The notes below the pieces were generated by a model. The model was not told the DNA's origin. It searched no databases and saw only the letters and a list, made by a program, of their open reading frames with translations. From the NCBI RefSeq assembly GCF_004010195.1, contig NC_057731.1, forward strand, positions 43,616,623 through 43,680,622: DNA of 64,000 nucleotides, written 5' to 3'. Source of the stretch: Chiloscyllium plagiosum (Eukaryota). Shown here piece by piece: positions 10,201 to 64,000 of the stretch. Numbering within the stretch: position 1 is the first letter of the stretch; each line of letters starts with the position of its first letter. The position numbers and the translations under genes are program-made.

Positions 10201-13200
10201 TGCTGCCCGAGAAAGCTGCTGAGGCAGGATCTCAATTGAAAATATCATAACTACAACTGGGAAAGAATAATCAGGGTTATGGAACTGACTGTGGTCAACA
10301 GAGTTACTTAGAGATCAGACATGACCTAATTGACTTGTGAAACAGACTCAAGGGGCTGAATGGTTTCCCTTGTACTTATGATCAATTTTAAAATATTCCC
10401 TTTCTGAAGGCCCTCTAAATTGTGGATTTCAGACACAAGATTCAGACATTACCTCTGCTGCTCATCAAGGTCCTGACAAATTCCAGTTCCCCACAGTACT
10501 GGCTCAGGAGTGCAAGACTTTCATCATCCTCTTCCCCAGACCCACATTCAGACACTTTCAGAGTCAGTAATACTCGCTTCTTTTCCTCATCCAGGTTTGT
10601 AACCTTGGCAACCACTGTCTGGCCCACCACAAAATGATCTTCGATGTTTGTGACAAACTTATCAGACATAGCCTGGAGGAGAAGAAACATTAACCAGCAA
10701 AATTAATACACACGTAAACCATTCTTGGGTATCGATTATTCAACATATAAACCCCTGGACTAGAATCCAGTCTGTTTAGATAGCTTACATACGAACACCA
10801 CTGGCAAGTCTGTAATTTATTGCCCACCCCTAGCTGCCCTTAGTTTGCTGCATTAAGTGGTTTGCTAAGCCATTTCAGAGTTATGTTAAGAATCAACCAC
10901 AATGCTATAGGACTGGAGTCGCTTTCAGGCCAGACGGGGTCAGGAAGATTTCCTTCCTTGAAGGACATTAGTTAACTAGGTGGGGTTTCTGCGACAATTG
11001 TTCCCTGGCCATCTTCCCCAAGACCAGCTTTTTACTTCCAGCTTTTAATGTTTCAGTAATGAGAATTCAAATGCGCATCTCCCAATCATTAGCTACAAAT
11101 ACTACAATAATATGAGCACCACACCATCATTACAGGACCATGTAAATCATTTAATAAGATTCAGCAAATCTGTTGCTGTGTTGGTCAGAACAAATCAATA
11201 GGTGTAGACTGGATATTGGACTCACAGCTTTGGGAGCCAGGCCATACAGTCCATGTGGGAATTCGACAAACACTCCATATGTCATAATGTTCTTCACAAA
11301 ACCCGGCATCTGCATTCCCACCTAAAGAAAATAGAGAGACAGGTAAAGCACTGTGGTTTCTAGAGGCCAGAGCTCCTTCCCCAAGGAAGATGATACTTCT
11401 CTCAGAGGCAATGTAACGAAGTCGCACTAGATTCTGGGGATAGAGGACCAAAGCTAGGAGGACAGGTCAAGTAGAATGAGACTAAAATAGTTACCACTTA
11501 GAAGGATTTCATTTAGTTGGATAAAATTCTTTACTATTCTAATCCAGATTCTTTATCTCAGTTGCATTGGTTTAAAAGGTGCAACATTCCACATAAGTTT
11601 CCAAAGTCTTTATGTCCTCCTGAGAGCAATGAGGTTCTTGACCCTGTCTATTCCATTTCCCACCCTTCTACCCTCATCCCTTTTCCTCCCTCCCAGAACC
11701 ACAAACAGGTTCTGCTTGCTTCGACGTTCTATCCCACCAGCCTCTGCATTCAACATCATCATTGCCTGTCATTTTCACCAGCTCCAGTATGATGCTGCCA
11801 CCACATCCATCCTCTCATAACCTCTCCTTTCAGGATTTTGAATAGTCATAGAGATGTACAGCATGGAAATAGACCCTTCGGTCCAACCTGTCCATGCCGA
11901 CCAGATATCCCAACCCAATCTAGTCCTACCTGAGCACCCGGCCCATATCTCTCCAAACCATTCCTATTCATATACCCATCCAAATGCCTCTTAAATGTTG
12001 CAATTGTACCAGCCTCCACCAAAGAGACCACTTCTTTTCTGAAATTCTAGTCCAGTCTGGAGCATCTCCGAACACATTCTTCCTTTCCAATAGGATCTGT
12101 TGATGTCAGCACAGGTTATGCAATACCTGCCCTTTCACCTCCTTTGTTTTCACTGTTCAAGGCTCCAAGCATGAATTCAGGCCTCTTAATTTGGTATTTG
12201 CTGTTAACAATGCAATCGCCTCTGTACTGAAGAGACCAAATGCAGACCAGACACCACCTTGTAAAATACATCTATTCAGTTCGCGAGCAATGGCCTTCTT
12301 GTCATTTGTTGTTTTATATCTTCACCACACAGCCCTCTGACCTTAGTATGCTGCAGCTCAAACCAAGCCTGAGTGCTACACGTTTTGATAATATAATTTC
12401 AAGCAACTGGACTTGACATGAAGTTGACCAATTTTAAAAGAGTGCATTTATTTAATTTTGTTTTGCTTCTAAATCTGGTTTCTCGATTAATTCTTTTGTT
12501 TTCCAATGGATGTTATTCACTATCCTGTCAATCACACCACGTCTAGACACATCCTCTGAGTTTTTTTTTAAAAACATGTCCATTGCCACCATCTCTGGCT
12601 TCATATCATGAAACCTTTTGGCTTTTAAACTCCCCTTTAATTTATCACAGATCTTCCTTTTTTGTTATTCTTCTTCCTACCTTCTCCCCTTTACCTTGCT
12701 CAAAACCTACTGCTTTACCTTATTCCAGTTCTGATGAAAGGTCAAAGGATTGAATCACACACAATTCTCTCCACTGATGGTAGCTAACTTTGAGCATTTC
12801 CAGTATTTGCTGTTTCTATTTCAGATTTCTAGTATTTTACCATTCCAAAATTCCTATACTGTTTGACAGGGCAGATGCTGAGAAGTTGCTTCATTTGGGT
12901 GGAGAGACTAGAACTGGACATCACAGGATAAGAAGTCAGCCATTTAGCGCTGACAGGAGAACTTCGGCATTCAGAATATAGTACAGTGAATCTTTGGATT
13001 TCTCGATCCTAGTGAGTTGGTCATTGAGATTATTTAAAACTGAGGAAGATAGAGTTTTGAACACTAAGAGAATTAAGGGATATATGGACGAGGCAGAAAA
13101 TTTAAAAAGTCTTCTTAAAAGATCAGTCACAATCGCAATGAATGACAAAGCAGACACAAGGGGCAACACAGCTCCTAGTTCTTTTATTTGCAACATAGGA

Positions 13201-16200
13201 TTATGTCGGCAAGCACATTATGAATCAGCGCAATACCAATGAGCTTGTTCATCCCAATGATGATTCACTATCAAAGTCGAACTCTTTGGTCGTTCTGCTA
13301 TAACACGCGTTTCATTAATCCAAATTCACGACAACGTGATTCATGAATTGGGGACACTGTTTCTATAGTGTGAACTTTTAAAGTGTGTATTGGCTATGAC
13401 GCAGTTCTAGTCCCATTAGTTTAAGTGGTGATGCTATTATGCAATTTTCTTATAACACAGGATTGCACAAGAACCGAACTACCACATTACAGCAGAACTG
13501 ACTGTACATCTAAAGAAAGCACATCAGAGGGACTCAAGCTTCGAGAAGCAAGTTACAGCTCACCTGGAGTTCCAATACGTCCTTTGGCAGTGGCGCTTGT
13601 TTAGCAAAAGCTATCACTGCAGCTTTTCTGCAAAGAATCTGAGCAACGTAGTTAAGGGCAGGCAACACTGTGACAATAGAGGAAACTAGCTTGGTTACGG
13701 AGTAACCCAATTTACAAAAAAGCACTCCTGATAGTGGATCTGATGCAATCCTCAATCATGTAGCAATACCATCATGTAGCAAATCCTTCTGAACTAGCTC
13801 GAGAATTCATAAAAGCTGATACCGGCCACATAACATAGGAGACTGTTCAGCATATCTGGTTTCTCCTGGCTCTCTCCAAACTGACTCACCTTGCCCCAGT
13901 CCCTTGCCTATTCCTGTCTCCCTGCTAACTATCCCAACTTATTTATTGACAATAGCTAAAAAGAGACAAAGTTGACTATCAGCAATCAGATGACAACTAG
14001 CTCAACTGTTAAATTTTAAAAACTCACAAAGTATTGGAAACAAGATTAAAAGTAAAGCCGAGGAACCAACCCAGCCTATACTTAAAATGGAAGATTCAGG
14101 AACTGGTCACCGCTCTGCTGCTGAGGGATCTGTTAGGGAGCAGTGACACTCACAGTAAGAACCTAGTGATATTAATATGACTAATCCACTCCCCCATCGC
14201 ATTTTTAATTACTCGTGTAACAGTATATTGGTCTCCATGATTATTATGAAACTCTTTCTGTTGAAAACATACTTGATAATAACGAAGACCTTTGTTCGGC
14301 TAAAGTTTAGTCAGAAAAAGGATACAATCTGGCCTTGGGCTTGGCTTAAACACATAACATTGGAGAGGATGTCACCCTTCTGCAGCCTCTCAGCAAGAAG
14401 CTGACAATTTGAGACATAGTCCGAGAGTTGTACCGTTGGGAGAAAGGCAGGTGCACGCTGTGGGAGAATGGAGACCTTCAGCCCATTCTCCACCTTCGCC
14501 AAGACTTCCACATCGACAATCTGAAACACATTTACCACAGTGAAAGCACATCAGCAGCAAAAGGAGCAAGGAAATGCATTCAGAAATAGGATACCAGAGA
14601 CAGAAGGAGGCCATTCATCACACACAACCCTCCCCGCATCCCCCCCCAAGCATAATGCTGCTCAATAATACAATCAAATGATGGCTGAGCTTAACTTCAT
14701 TTAATTCTTAGTTAAAAATCACACAACAACAGGTTATAGTCCAACAGGTTTAATTGGAAGCACACTAGCTTTTGGAGCGACGCTCCTTCATCAGGTGATT
14801 GTGTTGGACCTGTTGGACTATAACCTGGTGTTGTGTGATTTTTTACTTTGTACACCCCAGTCCAACACCGGCATCTCCAAATCATTTAATTCTGTAATTT
14901 TTAACCTCCTTGCTCAACAAAAAATTCTCAGCTTTGACAACCACCTGACGAAGGAGCGGTGCTCTGAAAGCCAATGCTTCCAATTAAACCTGTTGGACTA
15001 TAACACAACACAACCTGGTGTTGCGTGACTTTTAACTTTGTACATCCCAGTCCAACACCGGCATCTCCAAATCTTGACATTTGGAGACAGAGAGCATGAA
15101 AGGGGGAGGAAGAGTTTTGTTTTGACGATAAATCCTTAAACACATTGGTTAAGAAATCTGACTGATAAATCTTTTTATTTAAAACTGATACACAGGATTT
15201 AACTGGCTTCTCAATAACTGGAAAAACTAATTAGTTCTGAGGAAGGGTAATCAGACCTGAAACGTTAACTCTGATTTGCCTTCACAGATGCTGTCAGAAC
15301 CCGCTGAGCTGTTCCAGCAACTTCTGTTTTTGTCTCTGATTTACAGCATCTGCAGTTCTTTCAGTTTTTACAAAAATACAAACCTGGTTTCAAATGAATG
15401 CTTTTATTTTTGGGTTCATTCTGGTAAATGTACACTGCTACCTCATTAGCCTGTAACTACTGTTTTGTAGCTGGTATTCTAAGCTCCCAGGCCGAGATAG
15501 TATTTCAGTTACATCTATCAAAGCCCAATAATTGTTTGGTGAAACAAATTTCACTGTTCATTTGACAAGCCCATTGACATTTTTCCTACAGTCTACATTT
15601 TCTTCCTCATTATTAATCAAAGTTGCTGTAAATAGATAAATACCTTTCCAGTTGGGTACATTGAAGACTCATCAGCGTCAGTTCCCACCTTCTGTGTGGT
15701 TTTCATGGATAACAGCAGCTTCTCCTGAGTTGGGTCACACTTTAGGACAATGACCTTGACAACCTGGGAAGGGGGCAAGTCCAATGGTAAGCATGAGGCC
15801 AAAAGATCTTGGTACAGCATCCAAAACATCACAGGAACTGCTGCTCCACCCCTTCCATTCTGCCTCCCCAAGGCATGGAGAGTAGTCCCAACATGACATT
15901 ATCCCTTCTCATTGGCCATTATCATCCGAATCTATGCAGCCTCCTACTGACCACCTCCAGTCAGAAAGTTCCCCATCTGCAAACCCTAACATGGTCCCCT
16001 CTGAATAGACCTATCTAAACACTCAAAACACCTCCCTCACCCACCCCTACTCTGAACTATCCCAAACTCTGCAATGACTGCTGTCACTCTGAATCCATCC
16101 AAAACCAGCCTCCTTACTGAAGCACCTTTGCACCAATATGGTGACCTCCCACTTTGACTCCACCCAGTCTCCCCCGCAGACCGCCCTCACTCAGACCTAT

Positions 16201-19200
16201 CGGTCTCCCCACCGGTGACCGCCCTCACTCCGACTCTGCCTGGCCTCCCCCGCTAACTGCCCTCAGTCTGACTCTACCCAGTCGCCCCTGCTGACCGCCC
16301 TCAGTCTGACTCTACCCAGTCTCTCCTGCTGACCGCGCTCTCACCTGACCAACATAGAAGACCTTCTCCGGAAAGGGGATGGGCTGGGTACTCAGCTCCT
16401 GCTGAGGGACGAGCCCTCGCACATCACCATAGAAGCTGACGATGCAGCCATAGGGCTTCACAGAGACGATGTAACCGTGGGCCAGTTGCTTTGGAACAGC
16501 CTCCTTGTACTGGGTAATAACAGAAAGCTTTGAACCAACCAGCGTCTTCTTCAGAGTCAGGGTCAGTTTCTTGGTGCCACTGTTTACCATCAGTACCTGA
16601 GAAAGAAACAAATGTTTAATCCAAGAGGAACACTTCAGCTGAGTCATTCAGAAATATAGACATTTATCTTTGAGGAGTGATGATACTGCTGATTCCTCAA
16701 GGACTACACCCTCAGGGAAAAGAGCGGAGTCACATTCAGGCTGGACTGATCTGGGGGACTAGGCTCCTTCTTGGATCATAAACACACTGCACATTCAGCC
16801 TGTCCTGCACAGAGAACATATTGCACACTCACCCTGCACTTCACCAGATTTCCCACACTGTACAGCTTTTCTGGGTGTTTCAGGGGAATGTCTGACAGAT
16901 GTGTATGAGGCACCAGCCCCTGAATGTGGTCAGTTAGCTTCACGTGCATTCCATAACTCTCCAGAGAGGTCACTTTACCCTGAAAAGTAGCAAAATGAAG
17001 AATGTAGTCATTGGCAAATCTGTTGGAAAGATCCTAGCTAGATTCCATTCAACTCTCCAAAAATAGCTAGTTCCTGTTTACACACAAGACAGCAAATGCT
17101 GTCAAATCTCCGCAAGATGGGTTTTATTGAAAGGTCACTACATAATGGTCACTGGGTAAAGAGGTATCGGAATACCCAGATCAGACACTACTGAATATTA
17201 AGGCAAAGTAGGTCGGGGACCAAGGGATAGGTGAATAACATAGGTCATTGACTGTTGTATAGGCAGAGAGTTGTTCCCTCAGCATAGGCAGGTAAGTTCA
17301 GATATACTGAGATGAGGCAGATGCGCTGGAGTGGTAGGAAGGAACAGTTCACAGGAACCTTCTCAGCAATTCTCAGTTACACTGACCAAGTTTTCACAAT
17401 TTGTTCAGATCTGAAATGAGGATGGAGACACTTCAACAAGGTTGACGAGAGAGCGAGAGTGAGTGTGAGAGCAGCCAGGCTGGGTTAGCTGAGGGACTGA
17501 AAAGAGGAGAGCAGAGGAGAAAGAACGCTATTTTTGTTATTCTCAATTTGCAGCAACAAGATTCTCCTGGCAAAACCGAAGTCGTGAGCAAAGTCATGGC
17601 GGATTAGGAGGAACTCTAACCAATACCCAATTAGGAAAGACAGAAGGAATAAATGGAAGAGTGGTTAGTTAAGCAGCAGCTGGAGATAGCCCTGAGGCAA
17701 GAGAGCAGGACACTTTGGCACATGCCACTCGTTCATCCAGTCCTGCTGGAGGCTGCTTTGGGAATCTATATTTTCCAAAGACTGTACTGTTTATAAAGCT
17801 CTGGCTGTGAAGACTTACCTCAACCAGCTGTCCCAGCTGAATGTCCTGGTACTTCAAAAATTGGGCATCAAGAATGCTCCTAAAAATGAGAAACTCAAAA
17901 TCAAGGAAGGGCTGTGTGTTTATTACAGGAGTCAAGACATTATTCTTCAGTCTTTGCTATCAGAAACTGTTCTCGATTGAATTTGGTTTGTGCCATTTCT
18001 GTCCCTCTTGTTTGGGCTAACCACAAAGTGGAAAGCTAACTTGTTTTTAATTAAGAACACAATGGAAATGTCACATCACTAGAACAAACTATTGAAAATG
18101 GAACAAAACAGATTGCCTGTATGTAACCCAATGGCTTACCTGTCCTGGCAATGTTTGATTGAGACAATGTAGAGGGGTTTTACTCTGTATCTAACCCAGT
18201 GGTGTAGATGTGCTCCCTTTCCTAATCATTGTTGCTCAGTAAATGCCTTTGGGTATTGCTGACTCATGGTCTATGCCACCTGTTACCCTCTATTGAACAC
18301 AACGTCTCAGTATTGATGACCCTTCACACTCACTTTCTCAGAGACACCAGAGCCATCTGTTCCATTGGGCTGTGGTCAATGACCCTGCACCTGTGCCTGG
18401 AACCTTCACTGAAGTCTTTTGGGTCAAAGGGCATCGCAGTGCTCGACAGATGAGATTTCTGCAATGTTAGAAATTAACAATCAGTGATCTTGTGGAAGGA
18501 GGCAAAGTCACATGACAACAATACATGCCTACAATTGAAGAGGCAGGCTAATGAAACAGCACTTTTACACCAGACAGACCATCATATAAACTAAACCAGG
18601 TCATAATAAAACCAGCTTTACTTCATCTGCTGTCAGTGCTTAATCTGCAACACTTAGTGAAGAGTACAAGACTTTAACAACAAAGTGTAATTTGCAATGA
18701 AATCAGAAATGCTGGAAACACTTCGCAGATCAGGCAGGATCTGTGGAGAGAAAAAACAGAATTGATGTTTCTGTTCAATGCATTCTCACTAAGGCGCATG
18801 GAAAATCGGTCTTCCAGCAGAGCACAGGGTCTCAACCACAAAGGCAGCAATCATTCTCTGGGCTACAGCGTCGAAATAAGCTAGGGGAGATGTGGAAGAA
18901 GGTAGCACAGGTCAGCATTTTCTCACTAATCAGATCTCTCATTGTGCACCAGTTCAGAGATTTGAGAGAGAGGCCACAGACTGGTACTTCAATGTAGCAG
19001 CATCGCAACACCCCATTGTGGGAGGACAGCAAGGTAGCATCCCGCCTTTGGCAGGTGATTGGTGAGAAGACGACGCACTGTCAGCAGGACCCTCTTCCGA
19101 AGGTGACTTCCAACCAAGAGCCAGTCAGCTCTCACGTTGCAACATTTTAAAAATCAGGGGCTTAGCTCAATTCGCTATCCTATATCCATCTCTGAACCAA

Positions 19201-25200: not shown

Positions 25201-28200
25201 CTCTCAAATTGCAGATTGAAGCTTATTGTATTATGGTCACTACTTCCCAATGGCTCCTTCACTTCGAGGTCCCTGACCAATTCTGGTTTGTTGCACAATA
25301 CCAGATCCAGAATTGCCTTCTCCCTGGTAGGCTCCAGCACCAGCTGTTCTAAGAATCCATCTCTGAAGATAGAGAGAGACTTCAGGACAACAGAGCCAGC
25401 TCGAGGAACAGTTTAACACAGAGATGTGAAGTGATTCATTTTGGGTGGAAGAACTTAGAGAAACAACAAAAACAGAACATGCAGAACTAAAGGGGTGCAG
25501 GAGCAGAGGAACCTTGGGATATACATGGATAGATTATTGAAGATGGCATACAGAATTCTGGGCTTTATAGATCAGAGTAAGAAAATTATGAAGAACATTT
25601 ATTAAGCACTGGCTTGCCCTCAGCTGGAGTACGTGTCCAGTCTGAGCAAGACACTTTAGGAAGGATAAGAAGGTTTTAAAAAGGGTTCAGAAAAGATACA
25701 TAGGAATGGTTTCAGGAACAAGGGACTTTGGTAACATGAGTGGACTGGGGAAGCATAAAGGTCAGGAGACCTGATAGAAGTTTTCAAAATGAATGAGGGC
25801 TCTTCACAGGAAAGCTAGGGAGAGACTGTTCCCATTGGTGGATGAATCGAGAACCATAGGTCACAGATTTGACGTAACTGAAAATAGAACAAAATGCAGC
25901 ACAAGGAAATAAACTCTTAAGTGCAGTGAGTGGTTATGATCTGGAATGCACAGCCTGAAAGTTTGGAGGATGCATGGTCAATGGCAGCTTTCATAAGGGA
26001 ATTGGATCATTATCTACAGAGAGAGATTTTAGAGCTCCAGGAAAAGGTGGAGGAGTGTGACTAGTTGAGATAGGCATCATGGGATAAAACGCCTCTTTCA
26101 GTGCTGCACCATTCAATGAAACATTCACTCCTACTAATTTTGGAATACTTTCCTTATTTTGCTGTATTGGGAGCTGGTTTTATTGATGGTTGACAGGAAA
26201 GGTTTGTGTCAGAAAGTGGCTCAGCCACTTTCAGTGATCAGTAAAAAAAAAGAGAAGATTCAAAATCAAAACTCAGAGCTAGGAAGTGTTCTTGAGGGTA
26301 ACAGAGTGGTTTGAAGTGAACTAAAATAATGTCAATCCATGGCTTGTATGAATAGTGGGGCATTCAGTTCAAATCAGATTGTTAGACCTGAGATAAACTC
26401 GGGATAATGAGCATACTCTTGAACAAGAAACTGGGGCCATTTGTGGGTGTGACTCAATGAACTCACGAAGCGCCCTCTATTTTTGTGACAGACATATTAT
26501 TGGTTCTGGAAATGTCAAACTTGAGGATGTTCTTCATTAAACTGTTTCCCTTGGATCAGATTAGTAAAGCTGGATCTGGGAATTCCAGACTATATCGATA
26601 TACTCACCATGCCAGCTTGCAGTGCTTCAGGAGACAATGCCTTGTTTACATCCTTCGGGTTAATGGAGAGTTTCAAGCTGTGGTAGTTGGAATTTGTCTT
26701 TCCGAGCTCGTACACAGCACATCGTATAACCATACCAGGGCTGTACAGATCTGACAGGACTACCAGATCCTGGGGTTTGTTGGGAATGAAACATACCAGA
26801 CCAGGGATGAGAAGCACAACATCAGAAAGGAGTGCAAATACACAAGCCAAAACTCAGCAGCACTTATAGATGTATGGTAGAAACAGTCTATTGATTATGC
26901 CTGGCCCAGTAAACATCACTAGTTACTTTTTGCTTACAATGATCATTTGCAATTTCAAAATCCCTCACTAATTTTTCCACAATGAAAGAAAGCTTTCTTG
27001 AAGCTTAACAAGAAATTACCTCAAAAGCCTCTAGAATCCCCTGTCACTACTGTACATCCCTCTGTAGAAATCATAGTATAGAAACAAGTCCATCTGCCAT
27101 CGGATCTGTATAAATCTTAGAGCCATAGAGTTATACACCTTGGAAACAGACCCTTCGTCCAACCAGTCCATGCTGACCATAATTCCAAACTAAACTAGTA
27201 CCATTTGCCTCTGCTTCATCCAAATCCTTCCAAATATTTCTTATCCATATAACCTCTCCCTCACATCTTCTCTACGTCCATCCTCCTGCAACCTTTCAGG
27301 ACTTTACAAATCTTTAACAAAAACAAACATTACTGGAGAAACTCAGCAGGTCTGGTAGAAGGTGTGGAGAGAAAGCAGAGTCAATGCTTTAGGTATAGTG
27401 ACCCTTGATAAGAACAGTTCTGCTGAAGGGTCACTGGACCCGAAACAATGACTCTGCTTTCTCTCCGCAGATCCTGCCGAACCTGCTGAATTTCTCCAAC
27501 AATTTCTGTTTTTGTTTCAGATTTCTAGCACCTTCAGATCTTTGTTTTATTTTTTAAAATTGTATCAGGTCCCCCTCATCCTTCTAAGAGAAAGTGAGGA
27601 CTGCAGATGATGGAGATCAGAGTTGAGAGTGTGGTGCTGGAAAAGCACAGGTCAGGCAGCATCCAAGGAGCAGGAGAATTGACACTTTGGGCATAAGCCC
27701 TTTATCAGGAATCTGATGGGACATTCCCCACTTGCTGGAATGGGTGCAGCTTCAGCAACACTCAAGAAGCTTGACACCATCCAGGTGATTGGCTCCTCAT
27801 CCACCATATTCAACATTCACTTCCTTGAGCACTGACACATAATGGCAGCAGTGTGTACCATCCCCAAGATAGAGTGCAACAATTCATCAACGCCTCTTTA
27901 CTAGTGTTAGAGCATAGAACAGTATAGCACAGGACAGGCCCTTCAGCTCTTGATGTTGTGCCAGCCTTTTATCCTACTCCAAGATCAGACTAACGTACAC
28001 ACCCTTCATTGTACTATTTTCCATGTGCCTATGGAAGAGTTGCTTAAATGAGTGGCAAATTCTGCAGCACAGATCTGAGTGCTATGGCTGGAATGTTGTT
28101 AAGGCCTATAATTCGCAGTATCTAGCGCCTCCAACCATTTCACGTGGAGTAAATCTGATTGGTTGGAGACCATGAGCCTGGGAACCTCAGGAAGAAGTCG

Positions 28201-36974: not shown

Positions 36975-37890
36975 CAAAACAGAGATTGCTGCAGATCTAA
37001 CTACATCTGTGGATAGAAAGCAGAGTTAAAATTTTGAGTCCAATTATCATTCAGAACAGATAATAACTAGGAAAAGGACAAGGAGTGAGAGGACAAATTG
37101 TTTTGGAGCCCAGAGAGAGGGGGAGAAGAACAAATAGGAGGACTAAAGGATTAGTAATAGCATGCTCAAGATAAAGAAAAGTTGATATTGGGGACAATAA
37201 GTGGACGAAAGTGTATTGGCTGTGCTAAAAGCAGTCCCTATCATGATAGGGTCTGGGATGTAGGGATGGGTAAAGGATGACATTGAGTTTCAAACACTGT
37301 AGGGGACCCACATGGAAAATGAGATATTGTTCTTCCAACTTGTGCTAAGTCTTGCAGGAGCAGTGCAGCAGGCTGAGGCAGAAGTTTTGGCCACAGTATA
37401 TGTAGTGGTAGGCAATTGGAAGTTCAGGGTCAGTTTTGCGAACAGTAAGTAGGCATTCTGTAAAGCTGTCATCCAGTCTCCCAAAGTAGGGGAGAACACA
37501 GATTGAGTGAAGTGCTGGTAAGTCACTGCTACACCTGGAAAGTGTGTCTGGAGCCTTGGATATGAAGGAGGGTGGAGGTAAACAGGTAGGTGTTACAACC
37601 TTCTGTAATTGCATGGGAAGATGCCATGGGGGTGTTGGAAGTGGAGGAGGAATGGATCAAGGTATCCTGGAGGTAACAAGTTATACAAAATACTGACAGG
37701 GAGGACAAAACAGGCTTGGTGGAGGCATCCTGCTGGAGGTTGCGGAAATGGCAGCTTTTGGTGCTTATGATACAGATGCTGGTGGATTAGAAAGTGAGAA
37801 AGTAGGGGAGAGAAGGGATGAGGGCAGAAGTGTAGTAAATAGCTAAAGGCCATAGTGATGGGGAATGCTCAAGACATTTCTAAGCTGATC
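36975..37890 (-). mobile_element. Decayed Penelope-like element
   Basis: Degenerate similarity to the 31.9-32.5 kb element, with a family B-like end near 36980-37050. Confidence 0.5.
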
Positions 37891-37904
37891 ACCCACTGAC
37901 TCCA

Positions 37905-38057
37905 GATGATAGTCCAACAAGTTTATTTGGAAGTACTAGCTTTCAGAGCGCTGCTCCTTTATCAGGTGACGAAGGAGCGGCGCTTTGAAAGCTAGTGCTT
38001 CCAAATAAACCTGTTGGACGATAACCTGATGTTGTGTGATTCTTAACTTTGTCCAAC
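37905..38057. mobile_element. Palindromic family C mini-element next to the promoter
   Basis: gtccaacaagtttatttggaagtactagctttc...gaaagctagtgcttccaaataaacctgttggac. Confidence 0.8.
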
Positions 38058-38230
38058 ACTGGCCCCTCCACATCACTGACTCCATCAGACGAAGACTATA
38101 GGAAACAGAACAACTGGAGGAGGGGGTGATCATATGAACGACATCACTAACAATGTTTGATAATGTGAACGTTACCGAGGAGATCGTCAGTGACTCTGAA
38201 TCTGCTGAAACCGAACCCACGATCATTCAC

Positions 38231-39487: not shown

Positions 39488-39646
39488 TCTTTGAGGAGAA
39501 AGTGAGGTCTGCAGATGCTGGAGATCAGAGCTGGAAATGTGTTGCTGGAATGTGTTCCTGAAGAAGGGCTTATGCCCGAAACGTCGATTCTCCTGTTCCC
39601 TGGATGCTGCCTGACTTGCTGCGCTTTTCCAGCAACACATTTCCAG
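39488..39646. mobile_element. Family A mini-element with 14-bp TSD
   Basis: tttaagatgtgaaa at 39474-39487 and 39647-39660. Confidence 0.85.
39558..39585 (+). ncRNA. Minimal hammerhead ribozyme core (intact catalytic boxes)
   Basis: CTGAAGA-a-GGGC(ttat)GCCC-GAAAC-GTC; stem I is weak. Confidence 0.6.
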
Positions 39647-46943: not shown

Positions 46944-47161
46944 TCACTGTGGGTTATATGCCCCTGCAGCCAGTAGTAGGTTACGGCGAGTAAAGTGCAG
47001 GCCAATGACTGGGGTGGATTTGGTCATGTAGGAGCCAAGTAACAGCTCCTGCGAGTTGTCAGGTAAGTTAATATGCCCAGTGGCAGTGCTGAAATCATCT
47101 GTCTCCAGGTCCTCAAATGCTTTGACAGTGTCCCACATTTTCACTGTATTATCCATAGAAC
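46944..47161 (-). CDS. TAF5: TAF5 exon 10
   Basis: tttcag| acceptor; stop TGA ending at 46944. Confidence 0.94.
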
Positions 47162-50100: not shown

Positions 50101-53100
50101 AGAGAACATAGTTCTCTCCCTCTCTAAGTGAAAGGGAGATGTGAAGTCTCTGAAAAGAAAGAGTTCCAACGCAAAAGATCTAATCCAGCCAATCAGCAAT
50201 TGAATTGAAGACAATCGCGCTGCAGACAACGTCATGTCACCATCTCACAAAAAGAAAACTCGCCCCACCCTTGTGGTGTGGGCTCAAAATGCAAAATTTG
50301 TATTTTTTCCCCTATTTTTCCATCATTAGTATTTTTGCCAAACTGTCCGTTTCAGTGTCTTATTTGTGAATAACTGCCTGTGTTTGACATTTTGATAGTT
50401 CAGCTCAAGTTGTAAAAGAGCAATTAGTAATCCATTTTTGTATGTCATTTAATAAATAATATGTTTATAATAAATAGGGTTATTGTCCTGTTACTAATGA
50501 AATGTGATGCAGTCTGGCAGACAAATTCATTACTCTCTTAGTTTACTTTGGTGGTTACACATCTGTATCAGATCGTGATATAGTGAAGCTTGATTATTGG
50601 TGCAATTGAGTCATGACAGTCCACACTGGCACTCAATCGTGACTCCACGTTCATACTCACCGTGCCACCCGATCGTGGCCCCCTGAAATGAAGTAGTAGC
50701 CATACGGGGAAAACTGCGTATCCCACACTGGATAGTTATGTCCTTTGTAGCCCACGAGACAGGTGAAGGTTTGCAGACTCCAGAGTCTGACTGTGCCATC
50801 CTCAGAACTGGACAGCAGATAGTTCCTGGACAAGAGAGAGTGCAGAAAAATAATAGATTGTGAGCTTTCCCCCTCTAAAGCAATTATCAGTCAAGAGGAA
50901 AGATCCTCTAAATTACTCTCACACTAGACAATGAACTCTGTAATGGCCACACCTTCACCATCTTGTAAATAGAATTGCTAAAAGAGCACTCACTGTCACA
51001 GTGTAGGGTACAACACCCTCCAGCAAAATAGAAATAGAAAGAGCTGCGGACGTTGTAAATCAGAAACAAAAATAGAACTTGCTCAGAACGCAGGAAGGGT
51101 CACTTGACCTGAAATGTTAACTCCGATTTTTCTCCACCAGACCTGCTGAGTTTTTCCAGCAATTTCTATTTTTGTCTCCAGCAAAATAGACTGGTTAGAG
51201 AAGAGGGATAGGCATTAATGTGCCCAGCCAGCCCAAGATTACAGATACTCAGCTGCATCAAACAGTACCAGTTCCTGACGGTACAGCTGCCTGAATGGAC
51301 ATATGCATACTGCCCTTCACAGTCCATCCAACAGATCCCAAGGCACTGTATTGAAAACGTTCTCCTCTGTGGCACATCAAATTAACAATCATGAAATCAT
51401 AGAAAAATGACAGCACCAAACAGGCCACATGGCCCAGATGAAAACTAAACCACCCAGTGGGATTCCACTTTCCAGCATTTGGCTCATATCCCTGCAGGTT
51501 ACACATTAGAGGTAAATATCCAGATGCTTCTTAAATGAGCCAAGGGTTTCTGTCTCTACTGCTCTTTATGGCAGTGAGTTCCAAACCTTTACTATATAAA
51601 AGGTTACCTAGGCATTAATTTCATTGTCATTTACAGGAGTTGTGTATGTAAAACTGGCTGCCATGCTTCCAATATTACAAGTCATTACAATTAATAAGCA
51701 CTACATTGACTGTGGAGCACATGAACATCCCCACATCACAAAAGGCTTTAAAGAAACAGAGGTTTTTTTTCTGACTAGTGCCAGCCCTGGGTCTGTTAAT
51801 TTACAGTTCTAAAAGAAGCCTTTCCTTACCTGTCAGGACTGAAACTTGTCCCATAAACTGGGCCCCCATGTCCCAGCAGCATTTTAAACTCACAGGCAGT
51901 CTTCTCGTCCATTATTCGCTCCAGCACATCATCGGACTCTTTGTCAATTAAACTGAGATCTAGTGGGGGAAAGACAAAGCAGTTATCGAGCCTGCTGCCT
52001 CTGGATTTACTGTACCCAAAGGCCAACACATCTTCTGTATTTCAGCCATTCTTTGGACAAGACCAGAATCTTCCTGCAGATTTATACATAAGAACCAAAA
52101 TCAATCACAGCATGTCATGAGCAGTCAAGATCCCCAATGACCACCCTCGGCTACAATATTAAACTGGTCATGTGTGCTGAGACCTATGAGGCTGTGAAGC
52201 ACAAATACACTGCAGCTTCCTCAAATTTGTTCAAGATGCACATTTGTAGGAATGGAAGGGGAATTACAGGATGGCAGGAGAAGGATCTACAGTTGCAATC
52301 ACAAGCATCGAGCTTTTGATTTCAGTGCTGACACTGAGGCTACTGGCATTTCATCAACAGCACTATAGCCACTACCAACATTAAAACACTTCAGCCCATT
52401 AATTGGGCCATAAGCCCTTTCATTTGCTGCACTCCACTAGCTTCTTTTGCTGCTCACGGAGCAATGCTGAATTCTAGGTTAGTTGGTTATTGTAATGACA
52501 ACTTATTTCACGTGCAGTTCAGATGACAATTGTTGCACTGCCGTAAAGGTCAAGGGAATCTATTCCAAATGAGGTCACCCATTGGGTAACTGGACATATA
52601 CCCAAAGGAAACTAACTTGCAAGGTTACTGGGAAACAGACAGAGTGTGAAACTAAACTGAAAAGCTCTTCAAGAGTGGCCACAGTGCCGATGGGCCGAAC
52701 AGCTTCCTTTCATTCTGCAAGATTCTATTCCAAACAGCCTGAAAGTGAAAGCACTGAGGCTGACAAGGCAAGAGGGCTGTAAAGTTCTATAGGAGACTGG
52801 TTTAACAAAATGTCTGATTCCCTAAATTCCCTTTGCTGTCTACACCCAACACTGAAGACTTTATTTGCCTGAGGTTAGTGGGGGTAGAGCCCTAATGAGA
52901 AGGCTGCTGGCTGATTTTACCTGTAGCCCCTTTGACACTGCGCAACTTCTTGGGCGTGACACTCCATACTCTGACAGTGGAATCAGCAAAACCTCCTGCT
53001 ATCAGACTAGAATCATCTGTGAAGTCAACTGCAGTGAGTCCCTGTGCCGGTACAGGAAAGGGAGATTATAAATTAGAAAACAGATATAACAGGACAGACA

Positions 53101-56100
53101 TTTCTGAAGAACTTGCTGTTGTTAAAACAATGGCAGTGTATCCAGTACCAATACAATGAGAGAATAGTTACAGCATAGGAAATAGCCATTCAGTCAATCA
53201 TGTCTGTGCTAGCTTTCTGCAAGAACAATTCCCTCCTGCCCTAAATAATCAACCTCCTATACAGTATCATTATCTTCTTGGTTCTACTTTCAACAACTCC
53301 ACTTAAAGACATCAATCCCATTTAGCATGTTTATCACCTTATTTACCTGTGCTATTCCCCCTTTACCAAGGCCGCCCCAACCTCTCCCGGTCCCTACACG
53401 ATGTTGAAGAGATATGTTCCAGAATACATTCGCTCACATTTCAACTGATTTTTGTATGTTCTTGGAATGCCGGCATCATTGGCTAGGCCAGCATTTGTTG
53501 ATCATCAGTAATGGACCTGGAACAAGTACTGGTGAGCTGCCATCCTGAAATGCTGCAGTCTTTGCGTGTAGGAACACTCACAGTGCCATTGGGAAAGACA
53601 TCCCAATAATTTGACCCCATGGAAGTGAGGGAATGATGATACAGCTCCAAGACTAGGTGATGTGTGGTTTGGAGAAGAACTTGCATGTGGTGATGTTCCC
53701 AGGCATCTGCTTCTCTTGGTCTCCTACATGGTGAAGGTCGTGGGTTTGGAAGATGCTTCAGAATCCAAAGGTCACTGGACCCAAAATGTTAACTTGGCTT
53801 TATCTCCACAGATGCTGCCAGACCGGCTGAGTTTATCCAGCAATTTCTGTTTATGAGAGCTTTAAGTCATTGCTTTTAGTCAGCAAGTCAGACTTTATAA
53901 TTTGTGAACTAGTCACTCTGTGCCTCCTGCAAGGAAGTGAACTATGGGAATGAAAAGTACCTGGAGAAGAGAAGCAAGTCCAGACAAGCAAAAAGATCAC
54001 CTCAGCAAACCCTGTGGACTTCTTACTGCCTTCCCAGTTTTCCCCTTCCACATAACACCAATGTTTCTCTTTGGCTGTGTGTGTAGGGTGCTTTACAAGG
54101 GAATTACAACAGTTATATTATCTACCTGTCGCTAGAATCTATTTTGTTGATAATAAATAGTAACTCTAGTTAAGCACAGATACCTGGTTTTGTTTTCTGT
54201 TAACCTGCATTTAAAAAGGCAGGTAAATCAGGGAATTTTGGGTACTTCGATAAAATGTGTAACCTTTGTGACAACTCTGGGAATAACAGGGCTTAATTTC
54301 CAGCGCACTACCCTAGTGAGGCATAACAATATGCAGACAGACAGCAGAAATTCACAACCAAATATATATCATCCTGGAATTGAGGGATAGCCAACAACAA
54401 TTCCATGAGTAAACATTTTCTGTTTAGTACCAAGGAAGGAAGGAAGGAAGCCATAACAATTGAAAAAAAATACTTGCACTCAGATTCTTGTCTACTTCAT
54501 CAACATAAACCAAGGTTCAAATGCTCAATGTGAACAGGTTTTGAGATCTCACATCTGATAGTGATGTTGATTCCTCACGTATTACACAAAAAGCAGAACA
54601 ATTTATCACATTTGGATTTTGAATGAGCCACATGTAACTAGTAGCAAACATACTAAACAATAACAAGACTGAAATTATTCGGCCATCTCCAGCCAACTAC
54701 TACTCTTCAGGTATTCAGGGAATCATCATCCCAGTGGTCTATCTGCTCCTAACCTAGTGTCTAACCAACAGTCTGATCAGTATTGGCTATTTCCTGCATT
54801 TGAGAAGTTCCTGGATATGGTGAGGAACAGGAAATCACACAGCAGGTCTAGCACCTTCCCAATGACATCAGGAAGGAGGTCCTTGACCAGGGAGTGGTCC
54901 TTCGCAGGAAGAGGAGAGATTGCAACATATCCCTGTGTAGCAAACCACTCACCTGGTAAGCATTCAGGAAAGTGTAAAAGCATATGGAGGGCAGACAGTC
55001 CGGCCCCAGCTTCACCCGTTTTGTGGCTTCCTTCATTATCATTATCTTGTCCAGTTTGTCAGAATCTTTTAGTTCAGGAAGTGGAATTCTGAAGGTGGTA
55101 AATAAAGACTATTAAAGATATAATCCTTATCACATTCAGAATCCAATTGTGTCTAAATATAAAGTCAGTTCGATACAGGAGGCCATTTGGCCATTTGATC
55201 GACGCTAGCTTTCTGCAGAGCTACAGCTCAACCCTATTCCTCTGTTTTTATTTAAATATTCTTTAATGGGATGTGGACATCTCTGGCTAGGCTACCATTT
55301 ATTGCCCATTCCCATTTGCCCAGAAAGTAGATAATATTTCACCACATTGCTGTCGAATCACATATACAACAGACAAGGTGGATGTCCCTCCTGAAAAGAC
55401 ATTACTGAACCAGATGACTTTTTGACAAGTTACACTGTAGCCAATTTCATCATCTAGCAAGGTGGGACTTGACCTAACATCCCCAGATGCTCTCCACCTT
55501 TGTGGCTCTGCATATTTTCTCCCCCTTAAGTGTAATTCTAATTTGGTTTTAAGTCACGAATCATCTCTGATTCATCCAGCTTCGTAGGCTGTAGGGGTGC
55601 TTGGATAACAGTTCAAAACAGCTTCCAACTTGGCAATCTCACACAGAAGAGATGCAGGTGAAAGTCACAAATGAGGTGCTGGAAAATTGGAGGTTGGCTA
55701 ACATGGTTCCACTATTTAAGAAAGGTGGTAAGGAAAAGCCAGGGAACTATAGACCAGTGAGCCTGACATTGGTGATGGGCAAGTTGAAGGGAATCCTGAG
55801 GGACAGGATTTACATGTATTTGGAAAGGCAAAGACTAATTAGGGATAGTCAACATGGCTTTGTGCGTGGGTAATCATATCGCACTAACTCGATTGTGCTT
55901 TTTGAAGTAGTAACAAAAAGGATAGATGAGGGCAAAGTGGTGGATGTGATCTATATGGACTTCAGTAAGGCATTCAACAAGGTTCCTCATGGTAAACTGG
56001 CTAGCAAGGTTAGATCTCATGAAATACGGGAAGAACTAGCCATTTGGATGCAGAACTAGCTTGAAGGTAGAAGACAGAGGGTGGTGATGGAGGGTTGCCT

Positions 56101-59100: not shown

Positions 59101-62099
59101 TATTTGGGGATATTAATCTGTGGAGTATGGGGTTTGGTGTCCTGGGAAAAAGATGCTTGAAGATTAGGATATAGGGTTGCACAGATACTGAACCTGTAGG
59201 AATGTGGTTAGCATCCACATGTTAATGACCCTTTAATGAATGGGGTCTGGGGTCCCAAGATAAAGATCTTGTAAAGACCAGGGCAGGGATCCCAGGATGA
59301 TGATCCTATAGAGAATGGGGTCAGGGATCCCAGGACAAAGATCCTGTAGAGAACGGAGTAGGGATTCCAGGACAATGATCTATAGCGATTCTGTTGAAAG
59401 AGATTATTCCTTACCTTGGTTTTGTTTGCCTCCCTCTTTGCTTCTCCGGCCATTCCCCCAGAAGTCACCTCAATCTGTTGCTTACTCCTCGGCATCCCAT
59501 CAAACACGTCGATGAACAGTTGCTCCTGCACAATGTTCCAGATCTGGTTATTATGCCTCTCCTGTAAGTGACGTTTCAGGCACTGGTATGAGTCCCGTGA
59601 AATCCGTAGCACAAACTTACTGGTCCGAAAATCGAGCACTGTCTCATTCCCCTGCATGTGTTCCTTCTTCGACAGGCCAGCGAGTACTCGCAGGTCGTCA
59701 TGGTAATATCCTTCTTGATCCCCATGATACCTGCAAACAACCAGAAAACAGGTTCAGACAGATTGCAAGAAATGTCAACCATATTCTCAAAGTAGCTCTC
59801 CCAAGATAAACCCATGGAACATAACCCAGACCCATGAACCTGAATTCCAGCAAATTCTTTGTTAACAGCGGCTCCCTGACCCCCATTTTCAACTTTGACC
59901 CATCATCAGGGATTTCTCCTGTTTAAAAGCAAATTAAGTTTACAAGCACAGGAGTTGATCATAAAAGGCTGACGTTTCCAGGAGCTGTCATGTGCAAAGA
60001 GAAACATGCCCTCCTTCACTGAACACAACATATGCACAAGGGGCCTGACCCACAACCGCTAACTTTGCTTCAAGGGAGCTGTGGCCGAGAATAACGTCTG
60101 GGATGCAGATGATAAGAATCCGTCTTCAAGAGAAAGGGTGGGAAGGAGGTTTCTTCTTAGCATGATGCAGGGGAGAGGGCAAATGTAATGGGATGCAGAC
60201 AAGGAAAATGCCCTTGCAGGCTGGAATTCAAAGTGGAAATTAGCTGGCATATTGGAGGGGGAGGTGAGGAAAAACTGGAGAGTTCCATTGTTGAAGCACT
60301 GGAACAGGGCAGCTCATCTCCAAGTCTATTCCACTGTCATTCAATGTGATCATGGCTGATCTCCAACTTAACTCCACACGCCCCACCTTTGCCCCTTAGG
60401 CCATAATATCCTTCTGTAGCAAACAAATCTTATCAACCAAGATTTAACATCAACAGCACTTGTGAAAGAGAACTCCAAACGCCATATATAGCTCTCTTTT
60501 AGATTCAAAGAATCAAACGTTACTTCCATCTCTCCTTGACAAATGCTGCCAGACTTACTGAATCTCTCCAGAAATTTGTTTTTACTCCACGTGTCCAGCA
60601 GTATTGCTTTTACTTAATTCCACTCCTGACAAGTTAGGCTTTTTTGCAAGACTCTGCTACATACTAGACTCCCTAGAACACTTAGTATCCGAGATTCCCC
60701 AGTCAGCAAGAATAGTCTGCTGATCCCAAACCACGTTAAAAACTTGTTTCCAGGGAGTAGATTAGATTAGATTCCTAGAAGTGTGGAAATAGGCCCTTCG
60801 GCCCAACAAGTCCACACCAACCCTCCGAAGAGCAACGCACCCAGTCCCATTTCCCTCTGACTAATGCACCTAACACTATGGGCAATTTAGCATGGCCAAT
60901 TCAGCATGGCCAATTCACCTGACCTGCACATCTTTGGACTGGTGAGAATGTGGAAACTCCACACAGTCGCCAGAGGCTGGAATCGAATCTGGGACCCTGG
61001 TGCTGTGAGGTAGCAGTGCTAACCACCCGAGCCACCTGGATTACAACACCAGATACATAACCTGTTACTGTACAAAGTTAAAAATCACACAACACCAGGT
61101 TATAGTCCAACAGGTTTAATTGGAAGCACACAAACCTGTTGGACTATAACCTGGTGTTGTGTGATTTTTAACTTTGTACACTCCAGTCCAACACCGGCAT
61201 CTCCAAATCTGTTACTGTATTTAACCAAGACAATCCAGATAGGATTCTGCAGAATCTACAGTGCACTCTTCTACGATGTCTGCGCAATATATTCAGCTCA
61301 AGTTCAATACAAATCGTAACCATAAGGATGAACTATTAAGGATACTACAGCCATTATTATATTGATGATATTCCAAATATTGAGAATAATTTGATGGTAT
61401 TGGGGCCCCTCACTTGTGGAAGAAATGCCGAGCTTCCCTCTCATGCTCGTTGTAAACCAGCTCCAGGTAAAGATGCACGAAGACGGGGTACAGGAGAGTG
61501 GACAGCTCGGCTTTGAAGGCGTCCAGCGCCGTCTCGATGAAGCCCTTGAGGCCGGTGTAGTATTCCTCGTACAGGCTCGGGTCGCCCTCATTGCTGTAGG
61601 CCGAAAGCACCGAGCTGACGTCGGGCTGATGAACCGAGTCCGATCCCCTGTGGCCGGCCGTCCTCAGCAGCGACTCGTCCAGACTCTCCTGCAGGTTGGC
61701 CTCCTTCCTCAGGATCTCCTCGGCCTCTTTGAAGTGGTTCTTCTTCAGGAACTGCAGCACAGCCAGCAGCGTCTGTTTGTCGGGCAGCTCAGGCGCTGGG
61801 CCCGGGACTGGAGCCGGGCCTGCAGCGGGAGCGGGGCCCGGGACTGGGACTGGGGCCGGGGCCGGGGCTGGAGCTGGGCCTGCGGCCGGACCCGGCTTGT
61901 GGTTTTCGGCCGGACTTTCACTCGGCTCCAGTTTGGGGACCAGGGTGGGAGAGGGGGTGGGGGACGGTGAAGGAGCGGGAGAAGGTGTCGGGGCTGGGGT
62001 TGGGCCTGGGGAAGGGGAGGGAGCAGGGCCTGGGCCCGGAGTTGAGGCCGACGCCGGGGCCTCACTTTGTGCCGCCGCCGGCTCTGACACCGCCGCCAT
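46944..62099 (-). CDS. TAF5: TFIID subunit 5 (LisH/NTD2 + WD40 repeats), complete, 10 coding exons, 763 aa
   Basis: [10 protein letters not shown] LisH-like segment, [16 protein letters not shown]2, WD40 repeats ([31 protein letters not shown]), C-terminal NLLLAAGAY; exons total 2292 nt in frame. Confidence 0.97.
48427..48604 (-). CDS. TAF5: TAF5 exon 9
   Basis: tcccag| acceptor, |gtgaga donor, 178 nt. Confidence 0.94.
48711..48888 (-). CDS. TAF5: TAF5 exon 8
   Basis: cctcag| acceptor, |gtatga donor, 178 nt; [13 protein letters not shown]. Confidence 0.94.
50661..50825 (-). CDS. TAF5: TAF5 exon 7
   Basis: gtccag| acceptor, |gtgagt donor, 165 nt; [17 protein letters not shown]. Confidence 0.94.
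51033..51175. mobile_element. Family B mini-element with 15-bp TSD
   Basis: ctccagcaaaataga at 51018-51032 and 51176-51190; gggtcacttgacctGAAAtgttaactc. Confidence 0.82.
51830..51959 (-). CDS. TAF5: TAF5 exon 6
   Basis: cactag| acceptor, |gtaagg donor, 130 nt. Confidence 0.93.
52921..53041 (-). CDS. TAF5: TAF5 exon 5
   Basis: gcacag| acceptor, |gtaaaa donor, 121 nt; [21 protein letters not shown]. Confidence 0.93.
53850..54328 (+). mobile_element. Possible solo LTR
   Basis: Ends tg(t)ttatg...cataaca; internal AATAAA near 54151. Confidence 0.35.
54953..55088 (-). CDS. TAF5: TAF5 exon 4
   Basis: cttcag| acceptor, |gtgagt donor, 136 nt; IPLPELKD...PSICFYT. Confidence 0.93.
55660..57105 (+). 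mobile_element. CR1 (HER1-like) LINE 3' half
   Basis: [45 protein letters not shown]. Confidence 0.92.
58812..58975 (-). CDS. TAF5: TAF5 exon 3
   Basis: tggcag| acceptor, |gtgagt donor, 164 nt. Confidence 0.93.
59230..59385. repeat. ~35-bp minisatellite just downstream of the TAF5 exon 2 donor
   Basis: About 4 units of gggatcccaggacaaagatcctgtagagaatgggg. Confidence 0.75.
59415..59730 (-). CDS. TAF5: TAF5 exon 2
   Basis: ttgcag| acceptor, |gtaagg donor, 316 nt. Confidence 0.94.
60759..61036 (-). mobile_element. HE1/V-SINE
   Basis: tagattagattagattc tail; tRNA-like head on the minus strand. Confidence 0.82.
61073..61208. mobile_element. Palindromic family C mini-element with 11-bp TSD
   Basis: ctgttactgta at 61062-61072 and 61209-61219; perfect inverted arms. 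Confidence 0.88.
61414..62099 (-). CDS. TAF5: TAF5 exon 1 (CpG island)
   Basis: ATG in CAAAATGGCGGCGG context; |gtgagg donor at 61413. Confidence 0.93.
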
Positions 62100-62145
62100 T
62101 TTGACAGCGTTTGAGCGTTTCACGACACCACCTCTCTTTATAAAG
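62091..62145 (-). promoter_or_regulatory. TAF5 core promoter: TATA-like box plus YY1/TISU-like start context
   Basis: TATAAAG at 62142-62136; CAAAATGGCGGC spanning the ATG. Confidence 0.5.
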
Positions 62146-62340
62146 TGGACGCCTCGTTTTACGGCAGTTTGGGCAAGTCGCTGCTCATCATTGTGTATGA
62201 CAGTTTGGGCAAATTGGAAATCGCTTTACGGATGAACGGGTGTGCCATTTTGAAGACAATGCTAAATACTAAGGCAAAACAAAACCTTAAATCCTGTGAC
62301 TCAGATTTCAACACGACTGATGTCAGATTTCACTATCAAC

Positions 62341-62405
62341 TGAAAGCTAGTGTGCTTCCAATTAAACCTGTTGGACTATAACCTGGTGTTGTGTGATTTT
62401 TAACT
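62341..62405 (+). mobile_element. Family C fragment in the TAF5 promoter region
   Basis: gaaagctagtgtgcttccaattaaacctgttggactataacctgg; aactgaaa on both sides. Confidence 0.75.
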
Positions 62406-63951: not shown

Positions 63952-64000
63952 TGTTAAAAATCACACAACACCAGGTTATAGTCCAACAGGTTTAATTGGA
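63952..64000 (-). mobile_element. Family C element, truncated by window end
   Basis: gttaaaaatcacacaacaccaggttatagtccaacaggtttaattgga. Confidence 0.8.

Follow-up and report, generated by a model that had tools for sequence, protein, structure and literature searches.

Penelope-like elements (PLEs) carry minimal hammerhead ribozymes (min-HHRs), for which Cervera and de la Pena (2014; PMC4209133) described an extra nucleotide, a palindrome and families with covariation, as well as thousands of solo motifs "probably related to truncated PLEs"; cleavage of such motifs as dimers is also on record (PMC4209133, PMC6765202). The characteristic insertion pattern of PLEs, with a tail, an inverted 5' copy, and target site duplications (TSDs), has been published as well (PMC8557442, PMC3846280). 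Here, we analyze a 64,000-nucleotide stretch of the genome of Chiloscyllium plagiosum (C22:43,616,623-43,680,622 of the 3.56-Gb genome; hereafter, the window), through which three families of short hammerhead-bearing repeats, denoted A, B, and C, are dispersed. We consider it probable, at roughly 0.78, that these stubs correspond to the initial ~90 or ~125-135 bases of three Neptune-type PLEs and represent short dead-end cDNAs made by the elements' own reverse transcriptase (RT) and endonuclease (EN). The architecture of the stubs and the motif itself are already published (2013, 2014, 2021, and 2024); the addition made here is that family C RNA is polyadenylated between the hammerhead and the inferred RT start sites, as observed in one run.

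Comparison with described systems

The stubs share with the PLE motifs of PMC4209133 the core boxes, the extra nucleotide separating position 9 from 10.1, the G10.1-C11.1 pair, the palindromic positions 15.2-16.2, a short helix I, and the presence of several families per genome. In both cases, most motifs are solo, with some close opposite-strand pairs. Stem II comprises 4-5 bp here, and the copy number is higher, with >28,000 exact matches compared with 4,000-9,000 in coelacanth and Xenopus. The results and discussion of that study do not name cartilaginous fish. Considering that solo min-HHRs were described already in 2014, the premise of novelty in the original prediction, which was made from the letters of the window alone, is weak.

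The EN-containing (EN+) Neptune PLEs (Craig et al. 2021, PMC8557442; Arkhipova et al. 2013, PMC3846280) likewise combine an RT, a CX2-5CxxC linker, plus a GIY-YIG domain at the C-terminus, and show heavy 5' truncation, a head-to-head inverted neighbor, a 30-40-bp tail, TSDs, a pseudo-long terminal repeat (pLTR) with TATA and initiator (Inr)-like motifs, and a tail that overlaps the 5' body. To these features, the present analysis adds the quantification of one dominant 5' stop and a poly(A) site in the pLTR of family C. The Poseidon element PAc of Anolis carolinensis (Frangieh et al. 2024, PMC11167929), the RT of which primes in vitro at two internal sites with both strands extended, also shares with the stubs two tail-defining internal RT starts, nicking and extension on two strands, and a 5'-end hammerhead. 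Uncleaved RNA is the main substrate of PAc, with no reads ending at the cut, and we liken the stubs to it in this respect. The two differ in clade and in the position of the start codon, which lies 38 nt beyond the tail in family A and at stem II in PAc; the fate of short cDNAs is not addressed in the main sections of the PAc study. Non-LTR retrozymes (Li et al. 2026, 10.64898/2026.07.22.740005; one chondrichthyan sampled) share with the stubs the pLTR origin, the hammerhead, the noncoding character, and the occurrence of solo monomers. However, retrozymes are head-to-tail tandems, whereas the stubs are single or inverted and have TSDs.

Sampling and abundance

All offsets are given relative to hammerhead C3 (position 0). 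Segments were counted in six blocks totaling 1.264 Mb (1.224 Mb non-N), namely, the window with its downstream neighbor plus five picked blind to content, and their ends were taken from local alignments, with an accuracy of a few bases. This sample contained 351 segments in 293 insertions, which extrapolates to ~0.85 million insertions in the genome. Exact patterns of 32-35 nt matched 16,270 (A), 12,463 (C), and 172 (B) sites genome-wide, and the reversed patterns used as controls matched none; these counts, together with the simulated DNA described below, exclude a chance origin of the repeats. Family B is older, with a median identity of 80% to the best reference compared with 88-89% for the others.

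Linkage of the stubs to PLE open reading frames

The original prediction took the repeats for separate non-autonomous lineages resembling short interspersed elements (SINEs) or retrozymes. This was not supported, as the families continue into an EN/RT open reading frame (ORF) upstream and, in family A, into the ORF start downstream. Even within the window, the elements are not all free-standing because the A motif at 31724 (minus strand) lies directly behind a 3' untranslated region (UTR) and a GIY-YIG-type ORF fragment. A first look with this fragment (from 31600-32555) yielded 88,690 candidates genome-wide. Longer family A copies show RVT_1 and GIY-YIG matches within one ORF (GIY-YIG slightly below its cut-off). 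In two family B copies (L086 and L076), a fragment of the EN only, 47-51% identical to the family A EN, was located upstream on the same strand, at -783..-448 and -696..-574. Family C copies run into an RT-linker-EN ORF that is 32% identical to that of family A over 373 amino acids and produced no Pfam match. The CX2-5CxxC linker between RT and EN was read in the A and C ORFs and in one family B copy with the first Cys changed. This linker marks Neptune and Nematis (PMC8557442), and because Li et al. (2026) report only Neptune and Poseidon among vertebrate PLEs, Neptune is preferred over Nematis. Thus, families A, B, and C are probably Neptune-type PLEs.

The junction of the family A tail with the ORF has 616 exact matches genome-wide, and in 11 of the 12 fetched loci, the common ORF start lies 38 nt beyond the tail. 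Given that the tail continues into the ORF start, the stub is the leader of the element. Two candidates for the rest of family C were rejected: a query for its 5' body, which was mostly another SINE, and L205 as a full-length element, which consists of separate insertions.

In short partial tandems at L006, L023/L253, L133, and L254-L264, the tail and the ORF start are joined to the 3' UTR, and the varied joins suggest frequent template jumps by the RT. The partial tandem L261 begins at the inferred start site. An amplified, internally deleted subfamily was considered and rejected, as the three inspected junctions all differ.

Anatomy of the insertions

The repeats are 90-130 bases long. Among the 351 segments (1.224 Mb), the 3' ends are bimodal, near +83-91 and +118-135, that is, ~35 nt apart. 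The ~35-nt tail is optional and is present in 87 single stubs and missing in 119. Adjacent copies of the same family are head-to-head inverted in 75 of 78 pairs, and one tailed arm is combined with one tail-less arm in 68 of these 75 (p ~6e-14). Insertion by PLE RT/EN, as originally predicted, is supported by the TSDs: a TSD score of at least 9 was reached by 57 of 284 insertions compared with 0.2% of shuffled flank pairs. Most TSDs are 11-16 bp long, and among short A pairs, 31 of 44 have one when the search allows 6 nt inside the ends. No A-tail was found at the 3' ends inspected. The subfamily tags of the two arms agree in 15 of 15 A pairs and 5 of 6 C pairs, which is compatible with an origin of the arms from either one RNA or two.

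Start site, truncation, and the cleavage site

Most copies that reach +2 stop within a pile-up zone at -10..+2 (-14..+2 in family C; bins set after the data were seen), namely, 83 of 100 in family A, 27 of 34 in family B, and 23 of 33 in family C, and the per-base stop rate in this zone in A and C is ~5-10x that at +11..+44. The ~13-nt zone lies 29-32 nt behind a conserved hexamer at the TATA position (TATAAA in B and C, TTATCT in A; hexamers chosen by eye). The hexamer sits outside the stub and is found at -34/-36 in 31 of 35 long A copies, at -33..-30 in 4 of 6 B copies, and at -36..-40 in 35 of 43 C copies.

A pile-up of this kind could also arise by random 5' truncation of long cDNAs, with the RT stalling or folding back at the hammerhead and without any RNA 5' end at the site. 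The ~40% of A copies that end earlier, inside the stub (66 of 166), the stem I microhomology at some inverted junctions, and the missing cap signature discussed below would fit such a process. However, an RT moving 3'-to-5' meets the 3' side of the hairpin first, whereas the stop lies past its 5' side. Furthermore, the family C pile-up is centered at -8/-9, as the TATA spacing predicts, and not at the stem edge (-3), and family D, a fourth hammerhead family with a longer stem II, is nevertheless represented mostly by long copies, indicating that the fold alone does not force the stop. For the latter two reasons, an RNA start is likelier than a structural stall, and we regard truncation as unlikely.

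The stub ends also bear on a retrozyme-like cycle, in which cleaved and circularized RNA would serve as the template and the stubs would be monomers of the circles, a model put forward in PMC4209133. The short, internally deleted partial tandems could be viewed as products of such a cycle, and 2 of 12 partial-tandem loci extend upstream past the start site. However, the deletion junctions inspected are mutually different, only 3 of the 78 adjacent pairs are same-strand, and no head-to-tail hammerhead arrays were present among 12 rows of tandem-repeat (TRF) output. The stub 5' ends lie ~31 nt upstream of the predicted cut, and genome-wide counts of ends do not peak sharply at the cut itself (67 at +28 compared with 52 and 68 at the control positions +26 and +30; normalized, 755, 413, and 540), with the 20 inspected +28 loci confounded by 1-nt insertions in intact motifs and fold-back junctions. 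Six sample copies start at the cut, but they were rejected as fossils of in vivo cleavage given the lack of a sharp genome-wide peak. These end statistics argue against cleaved or circular templates, and we consider a retrozyme-like cycle highly improbable.

Stubs and long copies in the family trees

Trees were built from 70 A and 80 C copies at no less than 84% identity, drawn from 182 and 102 copies that had been sorted into short and long. All four main A subfamilies contain both stubs and upstream-extended copies, and in the C tree, short and long copies interleave (25 changes vs 26.8 +/- 2.3 for shuffled labels). Apart from mild label clustering in family A, the A and C trees contained no lineages of stubs with diagnostic positions absent from the autonomous partner.

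These trees are relevant to the possibility that the stubs are independent SINE-like families that possess an internal promoter and re-amplify themselves with PLE proteins. Consistent with this possibility are the very large extrapolated number of insertions, the uniform 5' and 3' ends, the clustering in the A tree, the internal promoter in Drosophila Penelope (PMC2377424), and the ability of pLTRs to mobilize other sequence in trans (PMC3846280). Nevertheless, it appears improbable: apart from the mixture of short and long copies in every main A subfamily and in family C, a long copy is the nearest relative of 28 of 54 A stubs even though long copies make up only 16 of 70. Moreover, no downstream flank is shared among the 111 A, 27 B, and 45 C tailed copies, and the inspected 3' ends lack an A-tail.

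The hammerhead motif

The original prediction was right in seeing minimal hammerheads of type I in these repeats, derived from Penelope and with a palindrome as stem III. A strict min-HHR descriptor matched 66 sites in the 1.264 Mb compared with 0, 0, 0, 0, and 2 in five third-order Markov simulations; only two window copies, 15237 and 39558, satisfy it. The extra nucleotide follows A9 in 65 of the 66 matches, and G10.1-C11.1 (II.1) is paired in 76 of 78 copies with an intact core. The palindromic positions 15.2-16.2, C-G in A, B, and D and G-C in C, leave no loop 3, which is the dimer architecture, and dimer-only cleavage is predicted for these motifs. Helix I is short (3-4 bp), and its letters differ between families. 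The claim that stem I pairs held for B and C and has to be extended to A, where stem I is likewise present with 4 bp, I.3 being a U-U mismatch in subfamilies A1 and A2. Subfamily A3 (L105:7601, L113:2790) differs from A1/A2 in having a perfect 4-bp stem I and AATAAA near +76.

The predicted covariation between families holds: 41 of the 45 commonest stem pairs in A1, A2, A3, C, and D are paired if only downstream sequence is used for assigning the family and pairs are counted from the core boxes, as a cross-family MAFFT alignment placed C one column off. Pairing fails in four cases, at I.3 in A1/A2 and at I.4 in C and D. Position I.1 is C-G (A, C) or A-U (D), I.2 is U-A, A-U, or C-G, II.3 is G-C, A-U, or U-A, and II.4 is C-G, G-C, or A-U. 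Family B, the stems of which formed part of the search pattern, is absent from these rows; in copies selected with this pattern, its stem I reads U-A, U-A, G-C, A-U. The covariation comes from four related families and not from many independent events.

In the A copies that span the motif, mismatches amount to 3.7% at non-CpG core positions, 42% at the free position N7, and 19% at CpG. These rates show that the core was conserved between source subfamilies and that the copies decayed afterward; a core without any change remains in 61 of 103 A, 17 of 35 C, and 8 of 33 B copies. Selection thus probably acted on the hammerhead of the source elements, and the genomic copies decay, mostly at CpG. 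The suggested Rfam check failed to detect the motif, with no hammerhead family among 9 matches at E<=1 and the palindromes giving miRNA-type matches only. The minimum free energy cofold of the dimer did not contain a double hammerhead, and folding z-scores of 8 window copies ranged from -2.7 to +0.3, with one below -2.

Alignment folds of A1, B, and C (~+43 to +112) contain a long predicted stem in which the tail pairs back onto the region following the hammerhead. This stem encloses the first 3' end, and C differs in sequence while sharing the layout.

Family D (L247:5356, plus strand; L140:431 and L231:3476, minus strand; L032) has a 7-bp stem II, U as the extra nucleotide, 3' ends at +74 and +114, and an AC-rich tail. 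It comprises 26 segments in the 1.264 Mb, none in the window, with most copies long (28 rows). A different EN C-terminus, which we take to be of the Poseidon type, is encoded upstream.

Polyadenylation within family C

The locus L004:340-1700, which carries long C and A1 copies, was compared with four RNA sets, namely, X21, X22 (no reads placed), and two contig sets. X21 is a raw poly(A) single-cell run labeled as organism C, perhaps a relative, of which ~2% was read and 4,779 reads were placed. The largest loose ends are poly(T) at L004:417 (601 reads) and 419 (487 reads), which in this one run correspond to sense poly(A) at +57/+55 of family C, a position that follows the hammerhead and precedes both inferred RT start sites. 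The site lies 12-14 nt behind a hexamer slot (ATTAAA in 14 and AATAAA in 6 of 23 copies). Internal priming is unlikely because of this upstream hexamer and because a GU-rich, non-A-rich tract directly follows. The poly(A) reads cover both C indel types, and the depth extends upstream of the start site. The reads, all from one sample, may come from any copy at >=88% identity, such that element mRNA and host transcripts ending in C are indistinguishable. No pile of starts or ends at the cut was seen among the ends listed for L004 in this 3'-end library, and no family A poly(T) end appeared among the 6 X21 rows listed (of which there are 1,117 more).

Family C thus carries a used poly(A) signal, and sense copies in genes could be intronic poly(A) sites. 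An example is the minus-strand arm at 61069-61129 between TAF5 exons; other C copies in the window are at 14937 and 62342.

A possible mechanism

Under the favored explanation, RNA polymerase II would start at the 5' strand of hammerhead stem I, the EN would nick both target strands 11-16 bp apart, and the RT would prime at two internal sites, one per strand. The cDNA would be copied up to the RNA 5' end and run off there, and most cDNAs would be sealed in by microhomology, yielding either one isolated stub or an inverted pair. A minority might extend into the 3' UTR and ORF, either by transfer to a redundant RNA 3' end or by read-through of tandem RNA. If +55 is where the C mRNA terminates, the two RT start sites would be found only at the RNA 5' end, and hence, long copies would need such a jump or a read-through tandem RNA.

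In the retroviral U3-R-U5 LTR, from which minus-strand strong-stop DNA is made, promoter, start, poly(A) site, and RT start follow in that order. Family C displays the same order, a likeness in mode of operation only: the process here is target-primed, without a tRNA primer or an integrase, and strand transfer is hypothetical. The position of the family C poly(A) site suggests a U3-R-U5-like terminal repeat, with the stubs as strong-stop-like cDNAs. A tentative generalization, which we consider possible but doubtful, is that Neptune PLEs replicate like target-primed retroviruses, with the pLTR as the U3-R-U5 analog, a strong-stop cDNA that is begun in U5 close to the 5' end of the RNA and has to jump to the redundant 3' R, and the roughly one million stubs and fold-backs representing failed jumps. 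For family C, R would end where poly(A) is added; families that have no signal at this place would perhaps use the hammerhead cut instead. In a chimera comparison, 4 of 28 classifiable long C copies were discordant between the upstream type and the R indel. A strong-stop, strand-transfer, or pLTR polyadenylation interpretation of PLEs was not found in print, with subscription papers outside the search.

Several observations weigh against the stubs being dead-end cDNAs copied to the 5' end of a PLE RNA. No tail-to-ORF junction was found for B or C, and no uninterrupted full-length element was recovered, with many long copies ending in N. The untemplated cap-G expected at the 5' junction was not found (1 of 31 single A, 4 of 24 B, and 4 of 15 C copies), so that the start site is placed by position only; family A has no canonical TATAAA, and the RNA library records 3' ends and gives no RNA 5' ends. 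For inverted junctions, Arkhipova et al. (2013; PMC3846280) prefer antisense self-priming. Finally, labels cluster in the A tree (11 changes vs 14.7 +/- 1.1, with 1 of 300 shuffles as low); possible reasons are that long copies were collected through protein and pattern searches, a biased sample, or that some subfamilies produce stubs for the most part.

Hammerhead elements in the window

The window contains 23 insertions, 22 from the insertion listing plus 31600-31910, of which 5 are weak B-type matches (40-56 bits). Each site named in the original prediction carries the family assigned to it, that is, A at 36444, 39558, and 43358 (plus) and at 27588-27712, 29601-29681, and 31600-31724 (minus); B at 12726, 15237, 27416, 51092, and 53767; and C at 14945, 14710-14803 (minus), and 37899-38075. 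The hammerhead layout did not hold throughout, with the B copies at 51095 and 53770 lacking the CTGA box and that at 12731 degenerate (72%). The features are as follows.

12726..12837, plus: old, degenerate family B stub, -5..+113, 72.5% identical to the best natural reference copy
14710..14883, both strands: family C inverted pair with a 12-bp TSD; left arm (minus) -9..+84, tail-less; right arm (plus) +43..+118, tailed
14937..15073, plus: family C single stub that spans the inferred start site (-8) through the end of the tail; core of hammerhead 14945 changed; ATTAAA slot present
15230..15370, plus: family B single tailed stub with hammerhead 15237
18689..18771, minus: weak, old B-type fragment, 40-56 bits
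647-705, 29787-29886, 36991-37040, and 60529-60600: further weak B-type matches, 40-56 bits
23307..23380, plus: family A1 fragment, +52..+125, without hammerhead; 19-bp TSD
27308..27541, both strands: family B inverted pair in which both arms start at the hammerhead edge
27588..27712, minus: family A2 single tailed stub, -4..+123
29601..29774, both strands: family A2 inverted pair, ~13-bp TSD
31600..32555, minus: 5'-truncated element, probably a Neptune-type PLE, with Cys-motif linker, GIY-YIG-type fragment, 3' UTR, hammerhead 31724, and tail; short N run inside
36345..36569, both strands: family A1 inverted pair with arms 98% complementary; hammerhead 36444; 16-bp TSD
37899..38075, both strands: family C inverted pair with two hammerhead edges at its center
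39495..39646, both strands: family A2 inverted pair with hammerhead 39558; 14-16-bp TSD
43358..43442, plus: family A single tail-less stub, 13-bp TSD
51026..51175, both strands: family B inverted pair, CTGA box lost; 14-bp TSD
53767..53852, plus: family B stub, +6..+91, without CTGA box
61069..61209, both strands: family C inverted pair between two TAF5 exons; arms identical at 49/49 positions, hammerhead core missing; 14-bp TSD
62342..62405, plus: family C fragment, +21..+84, ~240 bp upstream of the TAF5 start codon and on the opposite strand to TAF5
63953..64000, minus: 3' end only of a family C inverted pair that continues beyond the window; both arms reach the promoter-side region; 12-bp TSD

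The window also includes a PDCD11/RRP5-type exon (S1_RRP5; 6473-7054, minus) and two TAF5-type exons (TFIID_NTD2; 59208-59753 and 61410-62225, minus). An abundant tRNA-headed SINE, presumably of the shark HE1/V-SINE type, is present at 60950-61033 and as an inverted pair at 4552-5244, and also occurs in L266. A LINE (long interspersed element) RT ORF fragment, which we assume to be CR1-like, lies at 23655-24779 (minus; RVT_1, E 3e-34).

Implications for PLE biology

As a catalog entry, these repeats are ordinary, adding further PLE families with a known minimal hammerhead at a very high copy number. Their value is that of a natural data set on PLE replication and on the role of the hammerhead, the end statistics of which agree with the two start sites found in vitro for the Anolis element. 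Family C copies may, in addition, supply poly(A) signals to host transcripts. If the poly(A) site marks the element mRNA, strand transfer would be a direct and testable prediction, and the U3-R-U5 interpretation, if true, would give the PLE hammerhead a function and explain the pLTR, the tail, and the inversion together.

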